A stretch of DNA of 64,000 nucleotides, from the NCBI RefSeq assembly GCF_057098645.1, contig NZ_JBXSPU010000002.1. The stretch is one strand, 5' to 3'. Made by a program: the position numbers. Origin of the DNA: a plasmid. Shown piece after piece: positions 27,011-30,000 of the stretch (within the stretch, counting starts at the first letter, position 1; each line of letters starts with the position of its first letter).

Positions 27011-30000
27011 TTATAACATTTCGTACGGTTGGAAAAATGTTACTAAATGCCCGTCAGGCAGGGAGGCCGATATGCCCGTTGACTTTCTGACCACTGAGCA
27101 GACTGAAAGCTATGGCAGATTCACCGGTGAACCGGATGAGCTTCAGCTGGCACGATATTTTCACCTTGATGAAGCAGACAAGGAATTTATCGGAAAAAGC
27201 AGAGGTGATCACAACCGTCTGGGCATTGCCCTGCAAATTGGATGTGTCCGTTTTCTGGGCACCTTCCTCACCGATATGAATCATATTCCTTCCGGCGTCC
27301 GGCATTTTACCGCCAGACAGCTCGGGATTCGTGATATCACCGTTCTTGCAGAATACGGTCAGAGGGAAAATACCCGCCGTGAGCATGCAGCGCTGATACG
27401 TCAGCACTATCAGTATCGTGAATTTGCCTGGCCCTGGACATTTCGCCTTACCCGTCTTTTATATACCCGGAGCTGGATAAGCAACGAACGTCCTGGCCTG
27501 CTTTTCGATCTGGCGACAGGGTGGCTTATGCAACATCGTATTACTGAGATTCTACGTCAGTACTTTATAAGGCACTGTTGCAAATAGTCGGTGGTGATAA
27601 ACTTATCATCCCCTTTTGCTGATGGAGCTGCACATGAACCCATTCAAAGGCCGGCATTTTCAGCGTGACATCATTCTGTGGGCCGTACGCTGGTACTGCA
27701 AATACGGCATCAGTTACCGTGAGCTGCAGGAGATGCTGGCTGAACGCGGAGTGAATGTCGATCACTCCACGATTTACCGCTGGGTTCAGCGTTATGCGCC
27801 TGAAATGGAAAAACGGCTGCGCTGGTACTGGCGTAACCCTTCCGATCTTTGCCCGTGGCACATGGATGAAACCTACGTGAAGGTCAATGGCCGCTGGGCG
27901 TATCTGTACCGGGCCGTCGACAGCCGGGGCCGCACTGTCGATTTTTATCTCTCCTCCCGTCGTAACAGCAAAGCTGCATACCGGTTTCTGGGTAAAATCC
28001 TCAACAACGTGAAGAAGTGGCAGATCCCGCGATTCATCAACACGGATAAAGCGCCCGCCTATGGTCGCGCGCTTGCTCTGCTCAAACGCGAAGGCCGGTG
28101 CCCGTCTGACGTTGAACACCGACAGATTAAGTACCGGAACAACGTGATTGAATGCGATCATGGCAAACTGAAACGGATAATCAACGCCACGCTGGGATTT
28201 AAATCCATGAAGACGGCTTACGCCACCATCAAAGGTATTGAGGTGATGCGTGCACTACGCAAAGGCCAGGCCTCAGCATTTTATTATGGTGATCCCCTGG
28301 GCGAAATGCGCCTGGTAAGCAGAGTTTTTGAAATGTAAGGCCTTTGAATAAGACAAAAGGCTGCCTCATCGCTAACTTTGCAACAGTGCCAGCTGGACCG
28401 CCTCGGTCGTGATCTTCGTCATCTCATTAATACAGTGCACGACCTGACCGCGAGGGGGACCGGTCTGAAAGTGCTGACCGGTCACGGGGCGACTATCGAC
28501 ACAACAACGGCCGCTGGCAAGCTTGTCTTCGGTATCTTTGCCGCACTGGCGGAGTTTGAGCGCGAACTGATTGCTGAAAGAACGACTGCAGGTCTGGCAT
28601 CAGCAAGAGCCCGTGGGCGGAACGGCGGCCGACCTTATAAAATGACGCCAGTCAAACTGCGACTGGCAATGGCATCAATGGGACAATCAGAAACAAAGGT
28701 CAGTACGCTATGCCAGGAACTTGGGATAACCCGGCAAACTTTGTACAGGCATATTTCCCCTGTTGGTCAACTGCGGGCGGACGGGATCAAGCTGTTCAAC
28801 CGTGGATAATTTGAACGGACGGAAAAATCTGGGGTTCCGGCGTAGTACCCCTATCACCTCCACATTTTTGCAACAGTGCCTTATAAATGGCAGCCTTATG
28901 TTTACTTGCCAAGATGGGCTACCATATGATGTTTTATACTGAGCAATATTAATATTATCTTTAATGGAAAAATTAAGCCCACTAAGTGACCCACTGCTAT
29001 ATGGCTCTATTGTGAAGACGCCTGAGGGTAAAAATTTATACATGGTTGTCCCTATGTCTATTATTGCAAGGTTGACAATATTATTCGTTTTATAAATTTG
29101 AGCGTTTAAAATCACACATCAAAGCAATTAGTCAGGATAAACAACAATACCCAGTGCTTCGAGAATCAGTTCTTGCTGCCAGGCTGCAATTTTGATACCT
29201 GATGTATCGACTTTGCGGGGATCTAAACCGTCGAGTTCGGCGTGGCATAAATTGGCACCCTGTAGGCTAAATTGCCCCCAGACATCTTCGGAAAAAACAC
29301 CTCGACTTAAGTCTGACTCTTTCAGTGATGCACCCGCTAGGTTCGTTCCTATCCAGCGATTTTCAAACAACTCACATTTTTCTAAACAAACCCTCTCCAT
29401 ATTGGCATAGGAAAGATTACATCCAGAAATAAATGCTGAGCAAAAGTACATACGATTACTCACTTGATGGGCAAAGTTTGTTCGGGAAAAGTTGGCACCT
29501 TTTAAATCACACGCACGGAACTCTATACCGTAGCAATTGGCATTACTGAAGTTTGCCATCGCAAGTTGGCATTGTTGGAAACTTGCATCACGAAGATCTG
29601 CGACATCAAAGTGGCAGCCTTCGATATCACCCTGTTCAATGAACTTGCAGTTGACGAATGTCGTATCACGCAAGTTAGCACGTCGAAAGTCGCTGCGAAT
29701 GAATGTGCAAGCGGTGAAGGTGAGATCACTTAAGTCTTTATGTGAAAAGTTGTGGTGCCGATATGTATGATTGTAGGTTTCCATGAGTACTCCTTGTTGA
29801 AAGGAGGGCTAGACTACCATTATACATATGCCAAGACATTAAAATAAAAGCCTGTTACATCAACACATTACAACCCCTCAATTTACCTGTTTTAAGTGGT
29901 CAAATTGGCGCGTAGAGCGCCTATCGCTCTTGCATTGGCACGCGGCCCTGTTGAAAAAAGTTATTCGCTTTAGATAGGGTTAGGAGAGCCGTGCTTCGCC

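Follow-up and report, generated by a model that had tools for sequence, protein, structure and literature searches.

A Tnp26 G184N copy of IS26 in a tet(X4) plasmid, very probably delivered by a circulating qnrS1 unit

Resistance-gene clusters in Gram-negative bacteria are mainly assembled by the insertion sequence (IS) IS26, an allele of which with higher activity could speed plasmid fusion, gene amplification and spread. In this study, we analyzed a stretch of plasmid DNA of 64,000 nucleotides (NCBI RefSeq assembly GCF_057098645.1, contig NZ_JBXSPU010000002.1; the whole stretch is hereafter named the window), which carries three complete IS26 copies of 820 bp. A preliminary description had claimed that one of them, at 27571-28390, encodes the transposase Tnp26 with the substitution G184N, and this is what we found.

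Results

The 14-bp terminal repeat of IS26, GGCACTGTTGCAAA, occurs seven times without mismatch in the window, where no occurrence is expected by chance, and its sites define the three complete copies. A BLAST search with copy 1 as query found no further piece of IS26 in the window beyond these copies and one solitary repeat. Copy 1 (24126-24945, + strand), identified by its terminal repeats, BLAST and translation, has the standard sequence; its tnp26 gene (24189-24893, +) has GGC as codon 184, and the product is annotated as WP_001067855.1 in identical plasmids. Copy 2 (27571-28390, +) is bounded by perfect repeats at 27571-27584 (+) and 28377-28390 (-), and its tnp26 gene (27634-28338, +) encodes Tnp26 G184N (WP_001067858.1 in identical plasmids). 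Copy 3 (30338-31157, -) is inverted, and its gene (30390-31094, -) encodes wild-type Tnp26. Upon translation, all three genes are intact and specify 234 amino acids.

Copies 1 and 2 are identical at 818 of 820 positions (99.76%). The sole differences are adjacent, GG>AA at IS positions 613-614 (28183-28184 in the window), so that codon 184 (28183-28185, +) reads AAC (Asn) instead of GGC (Gly), and the peptide RIINATLGF stands in place of the RIIGATLGF of copy 1. The preliminary description had the coordinates and the codon change exactly, and had rightly given copies 1 and 3 the wild-type peptide. Copy 1, against which copy 2 was measured, encodes the commonest Tnp26. The copy 2 protein scores 278 bits against NF033587, the NCBIfam model of IS6-family transposases (cut-off 125), and residues D78, D138 and E173, described as the catalytic DDE triad of Tnp26 (PMC8477213), do not vary among the 30 sequences of a family alignment. 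Full-length alignment of the three copies, which had been proposed as a check, confirmed the change in copy 2 and also brought out a difference that had been overlooked: copy 3 departs from copy 1 by an A>G change at IS position 780 (30378 in the window), in non-coding DNA 12 nt past the tnp26 stop. This 780G is close to the IS end, at a distance of 41 bp; positions 613-614 are more than 200 bp away from both ends.

The G184N observation is already known, having been published since 2019, and surveys have shown IS26-v1 to be abundant and mostly accompanied by IS26. Pong et al. 2019 is said to be the primary source for the higher cointegrate-forming activity of G184N, the guide for naming IS26 variants is reportedly that of Harmer, Pong and Hall 2021, and the variant called IS26-v1 is, we presume, the one listed in ISfinder as IS15DIV. 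Four papers treat the G184N form as the named variant IS26-v1 and credit it, citing Pong et al. 2019, with raised cointegrate formation (PMC11137137, PMC9019673, PMC8477213, PMC12540391); according to one of them, G184N is present in both v1 and v3 (PMC12540391). Since copy 2 has no change relative to copy 1 beyond GG>AA, and no third substitution, v1 appears to be the best-fitting variant name for it.

Copy 2 forms the left end of a unit of 3,587 bp (27571-31157, +), made of IS26-v1, a truncated resolvase gene, qnrS1, a truncated IS2-like element and the inverted IS26 with 780G. Next to copy 2, at the start of the qnrS1 segment, an open reading frame (ORF) holds what truncation by copy 2 has left of a serine-resolvase gene, its 3' part (28391-28809, +); the gene is full-length at the corresponding place in NZ_MZ779047. 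The quinolone-resistance gene qnrS1 lies at 29128-29784 (-). Beyond it, the 5' part of an IS2-like orfA (30152-30337, +), which we take to resemble IS2 InsC, runs into copy 3 and is truncated by it.

The complete unit matched the IncX1 plasmid NZ_CP055073.1, from Shigella flexneri, with 0 mismatches, AA and 780G included, and its left neighbour there is a different one, blaTEM-176. At least 80% of the unit was covered in about 200 plasmid records, which include IncX1 plasmids of about 46 kb, IncHI1 plasmids and others. AA and 780G together mark one lineage of the qnrS1 unit. We conclude that copy 2 was brought in by a circulating qnrS1 unit, of which it is the left arm, and did not arise in this plasmid. 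Since the whole unit with both markers is identical in IncX1 plasmids, we further conclude that the allele mixture in the window reflects modular assembly, not local mutation. Overall, we put at about 90% the probability that copy 2 is a genuine, intact IS26-v1, with the G184N allele, delivered in this manner. The AA of copy 2 and the 780G of copy 3 thereby tag a qnrS1 unit common to IncX1 and tet(X4) IncHI1 plasmids, and such markers help to trace how a tigecycline-resistance plasmid acquired a quinolone-resistance module.

The frequencies of the two alleles were determined in 5,426 complete E. coli genomes, with 54-nt queries in which each 28-nt BLAST seed crosses the variable dinucleotide; a query therefore matches same-allele copies only. 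The AAC (v1) query matched 5,447 places, in 1,679 genomes and 2,241 replicons (records), and the GGC (wild-type) query 16,466 places (3,142 genomes, 5,271 replicons). A neighbouring invariant 54-mer, common to any IS26, matched 22,069 places (3,363 genomes, 5,831 replicons). The two alleles make up about 99% of the IS26 copies, and v1 about 25%. Inclusion-exclusion gives a minimum of 1,458 genomes, i.e. 87% of the v1-bearing ones, that hold both alleles, so that a mixture of IS26 and IS26-v1 is the normal state and no distinguishing feature of the region studied here. IS26-v1 alongside ordinary IS26 is present in about one in four complete E. coli genomes, and at least 1,681 of the 2,241 v1-bearing replicons also carry wild-type IS26. 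In a large protein collection, both exact Tnp26 proteins were each found on at least 1,000 contigs, and a published count of plasmid transposases reports 6,266 IS26 and 1,385 IS26-v1, often on the same replicon (PMC11137137). The 780G allele is rare, with 82 places in 71 of the 5,426 genomes.

Positions 21000-34000 of the window match many plasmids of about 190 kb, of the tet(X4) IncHI1 type, from E. coli, Citrobacter, Morganella, Salmonella and Klebsiella. Six tet(X4) plasmids were aligned base by base over this 13-kb region and showed one or two base differences each. The allele at copy 2 in such sister plasmids was determined with a query of 1,820 bp (copy 2 and 500 bp of unique flank on each side), searched against a plasmid collection both as is and with GG substituted. 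Copy 2 was found in the same context in 42 plasmid records, 35 of which scored better with the AAC query and seven with GGC (ON390812, ON390817, ON390820, ON934549, ON934556, CP139340 and CP130474). Comparison at the level of bases bore these assignments out, and the site is thus polymorphic in databases. In ON390820 and CP130474, positions 28183-28184 are the only differences from the window over 13 kb, and every sister plasmid examined has kept 780G in copy 3. A single inherited event, by which the seven GGC records would form one clade, is excluded by the occurrence of GGC on at least three single-nucleotide polymorphism (SNP) backgrounds.

Three of the seven GGC sisters also show IS26-mediated changes beside copy 1: pTQ2 (NZ_ON390812, 6900-12900) has an extra IS26-bounded insert of 5.1 kb with a phosphoethanolamine transferase gene, pTQ30 (NZ_ON390817, 1-12100) is fused there with an IncX3 plasmid, and in p13Q15 the left side has been replaced. 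In a Citrobacter plasmid, pSZ6R-tetX4 (NZ_MW940627, 6672-7491), the equivalent of copy 2 has G184N together with 350 A>G and 459 G>A (IS positions), and is annotated as a distinct protein, WP_136655513.1.

No 8-bp target duplication was found at any of the three IS26 copies, nor any inverted duplication, and the flanks of the different copies do not match each other in direct or reverse-complement orientation. The 8-bp flanks of copy 2, CTTTATAA and AGCTGGAC, are not identical, so that the direct repeats expected on both sides after simple copy-in are lacking. Such absence suits a history of conservative or cointegrate events better than one of simple insertions; it bears on the history of copy 2, not on its identity as IS26.

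Copies 1 and 2, directly oriented (both +), bracket a 2,625-bp Tn2 remnant (24946-27570, -), the contents of which have intact translations: blaTEM-1 (25308-26168, -), tnpR (26351-26908, -) and tnpA as far as codon 166 (27072-27569, +), where copy 2 interrupts it. The whole of copy 1, bla segment and copy 2 has the layout of a pseudo-compound transposon and, given the direct orientation of its arms, may release or receive a translocatable unit.

More generally, the order of features is IS1B, aadA22 and intI1, then copy 1, then blaTEM-1, tnpR and the truncated Tn2 tnpA, then copy 2, followed by the truncated resolvase gene, the solitary repeat, qnrS1, the truncated IS2-like orfA and the inverted copy 3. 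Further along, past copy 3, come floR, ISVsa3, tet(X4) and estT. The tigecycline-resistance gene tet(X4) (43152-44309, -) is intact upon translation and adjoins the macrolide hydrolase gene estT (about 44299-45216); both are flanked by ISVsa3 and IS1B. An intact tet(X4) with adjoining estT assigns the window to the epidemic family of tet(X4) IncHI1-type plasmids.

The solitary repeat (28867-28880, -) is a perfect 14-bp IS26-type repeat without IS body, only these 14 bp matching IS26. A repeat with two mismatches, GGCCCTGTTGAAAA, is present on the other side of qnrS1 (29944-29957, +), and both are directed away from this gene. The hexamer TTATAA adjoins the left end of copy 2 as well as the solitary repeat. 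In NZ_MZ779047, where the resolvase gene is intact, the DNA upstream of it was searched for a partner of the solitary repeat, and none was found.

A direct repeat of 1,595 bp, of about 99.9% identity (36376-37970 and 41084-42678), overlaps the gene of ISVsa3 (IS91-like) and brackets the floR-to-tet(X4) segment. It could drive deletion or amplification independently of IS26. The first plasmid matches, in two pieces, gave the appearance of a 4-kb insertion, which is in fact this repeated ISVsa3-associated segment, with the arrangement unchanged.

We also examined the place of residue 184 in the transposase. In an AlphaFold2 model of Tnp26 (mean predicted local distance difference test score, pLDDT, of 91), residue 184 ends the helix 170-184, which bears the catalytic E173, and is followed by a loop (185-191). 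A PDB sequence search found no solved structure of an IS26-family transposase. The best fold match in the PDB was the ISCth4 transposase, the other fold-level matches being retroviral integrases. A comparison with ISCth4 has also been made in PMC8477213, which places residue 184 just beyond the E173 helix and suggests that the surrounding region contacts the terminal repeat, a gain in binding by G184N being offered there as an idea only.

A collection of 1.84 billion representative proteins supplied 66 relatives of less than 90% identity, in which the residue aligned with position 184 is Arg in 39 and Lys in 11 (50 of the 66 together), Gly in four and Asn in three. Judged from these sequences, IS26 is the exception with its glycine, the norm in the family being a side chain that is polar or basic. 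We infer that the family residues support a role of position 184 in DNA contact, and we predict that G184R or G184K would be active as well. As residue 184 caps the E173 helix in the model and relatives mostly have Arg or Lys, the effect of G184N would likeliest come from better contact with IS-end DNA, by which Tnp26 G184N would form cointegrates more often.

Discussion

Experiments have established that IS26 forms cointegrates only, either by a copy-in route into a new target, which leaves an 8-bp duplication, or by a targeted conservative route between two IS26 copies, which is far more efficient; its transposase binds the 14-bp terminal repeats, preferentially those of the IS that encodes it (PMC9602291, PMC7885326). 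When more divergent relatives were crossed, targeted cointegrates are reported to have formed only if both ISs made the same transposase (PMC7885326). As far as the DNA is concerned, copy 2 and the wild-type copies have what a targeted reaction between them requires, because they are identical over 612 bp at the left end and 206 bp at the right.

The qnrS1 unit lies beside the IS26-bounded blaTEM-1/Tn2 remnant, within the multidrug-resistance region of a tet(X4) IncHI1-type plasmid, and we regard the mixed IS26 alleles as a by-product of modules being put together stepwise by IS26.

The mixture of variant and wild-type copies had been thought relevant to the speed at which the region rearranges. 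This stands insofar as the mixture is real and the activity of G184N has been reported; we saw no sign in the sequences of faster rearrangement by copy 2, and rearrangements beside copy 1 also occurred in three of the seven sisters with wild-type IS26 at the position of copy 2.

Several points weigh against the assignment of copy 2 to a genuine, delivered IS26-v1, and against the properties ascribed to it. Seven sister plasmids have GGC at copy 2, so that the allele there is unstable or else depends on how the sequence was assembled, and the call in the window was read from the assembled sequence only. Both the activity of G184N and the numbering of v1 versus v3 are taken from secondary citations. 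The ‘v1’ of PMC9412624 differs from IS26 by three nucleotides, and copy 2 from copy 1 by two. Finally, contact with DNA as the mechanism of G184N is a conjecture in PMC8477213.

What else could have placed AAC in copy 2? The preliminary description had named an error at 28183-28185 as the finding that would overturn it. Such an error, of sequencing, assembly or polishing, might have been caused by reads from an IS26-v1 elsewhere: IS26 is multi-copy, short reads over positions 613-614 are not uniquely placeable at more than 200 bp from the ends, and seven sister records do show GGC. Yet 35 of the 42 sisters, independently deposited by several laboratories and from several genera, have the same two bases in the same copy, and an error would improbably have landed always on that one. 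AAC is moreover a common natural allele, which IncX1 plasmids also have in their identical copy of the qnrS1 unit, so that we regard an error as very unlikely. The chance that G184N was newly mutated in this plasmid lineage, independently of circulating IS26-v1, is smaller still and practically nil. Nothing specific speaks for it besides the distance of only two bases from copy 1; it would need two adjacent substitutions recreating an allele found at 5,447 places in E. coli, and it is effectively refuted by the identity of the whole 3,587-bp unit, AAC included, in unrelated IncX1 plasmids.

Somewhat less remote, though still improbable, is a history in which copy 2 was originally wild type and received AA only afterwards from a second IS26-v1 in a host cell, through gene conversion or IS replacement. 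Sister plasmids do differ in the copy 2 allele, the flip being seen on three or more SNP backgrounds, and unpublished gene conversion in the targeted conservative reaction is mentioned in PMC7885326. However, AA and the rare 780G are found base-identical in IncX1 plasmids next to a different left neighbour, for which joint travel is the simpler account, and with AAC in most of the records (35 of 42), the change among sisters is most simply a loss of AA. Delivery of copy 2 with the qnrS1 unit is therefore the reading that we retain.

The flip between GGC and AAC among sisters calls for its own explanation, and both real gene conversion and repeat collapse in assembly fit. If short-read-graph or hybrid assemblies had collapsed an internal difference between copies to the commoner allele, 780G near the IS end would probably have been spared. 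For the targeted conservative route, branch migration of a Holliday junction has been proposed, with mention of unpublished conversion of a point mutation (PMC7885326). That the flip represents recurrent natural gene conversion between IS26 copies within one plasmid lineage is a tentative idea, to which we give about one chance in three. If true, the flip would be the trace that Holliday-junction branch migration is predicted to leave during the targeted conservative reaction, and the sister plasmids would constitute a natural matched set, the same plasmid with and without the hyperactive allele, for measuring whether G184N alters rearrangement rates in the field. The flip is also a caution, in that internal differences between IS copies may be homogenised by recombination or by assemblers.

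Compared to IS26-v1, copy 2 has the same length of 820 bp, the same 14-bp repeats, a transposase of 234 residues and Asn184 by GGC>AAC; no difference from IS26-v1 as described is apparent, and uncertainty is confined to nomenclature. With standard IS26 (WP_001067855.1), it shares the ends, the triad D78/D138/E173 and presumably both cointegrate routes, and differs by Asn versus Gly at 184, for which a higher cointegrate frequency is reported, via secondary citations. The segment from copy 1 to copy 2 is similar to the IS26 pseudo-compound transposons of Harmer, Pong and Hall 2020 in that direct arms surround blaTEM-1 and could, from the sequence, give a translocatable unit of 3,445 bp; unlike them, its two arms are different alleles and it has no flanking 8-bp duplication. 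Mixed IS26/IS26-v1 islands have been described in the IncHI2 plasmid pOYZ4 and its chromosomal form (PMC9019673), in PTn6020 of Acinetobacter (PMC9602291) and in the KES plasmid survey (PMC11137137). The region studied here shares with those several copies of both alleles, mostly without target duplications, and the use of alleles as markers of events, whereas it differs by belonging to a tet(X4) IncHI1-type plasmid family, in which v1 is part of a qnrS1 unit with inverted IS arms.

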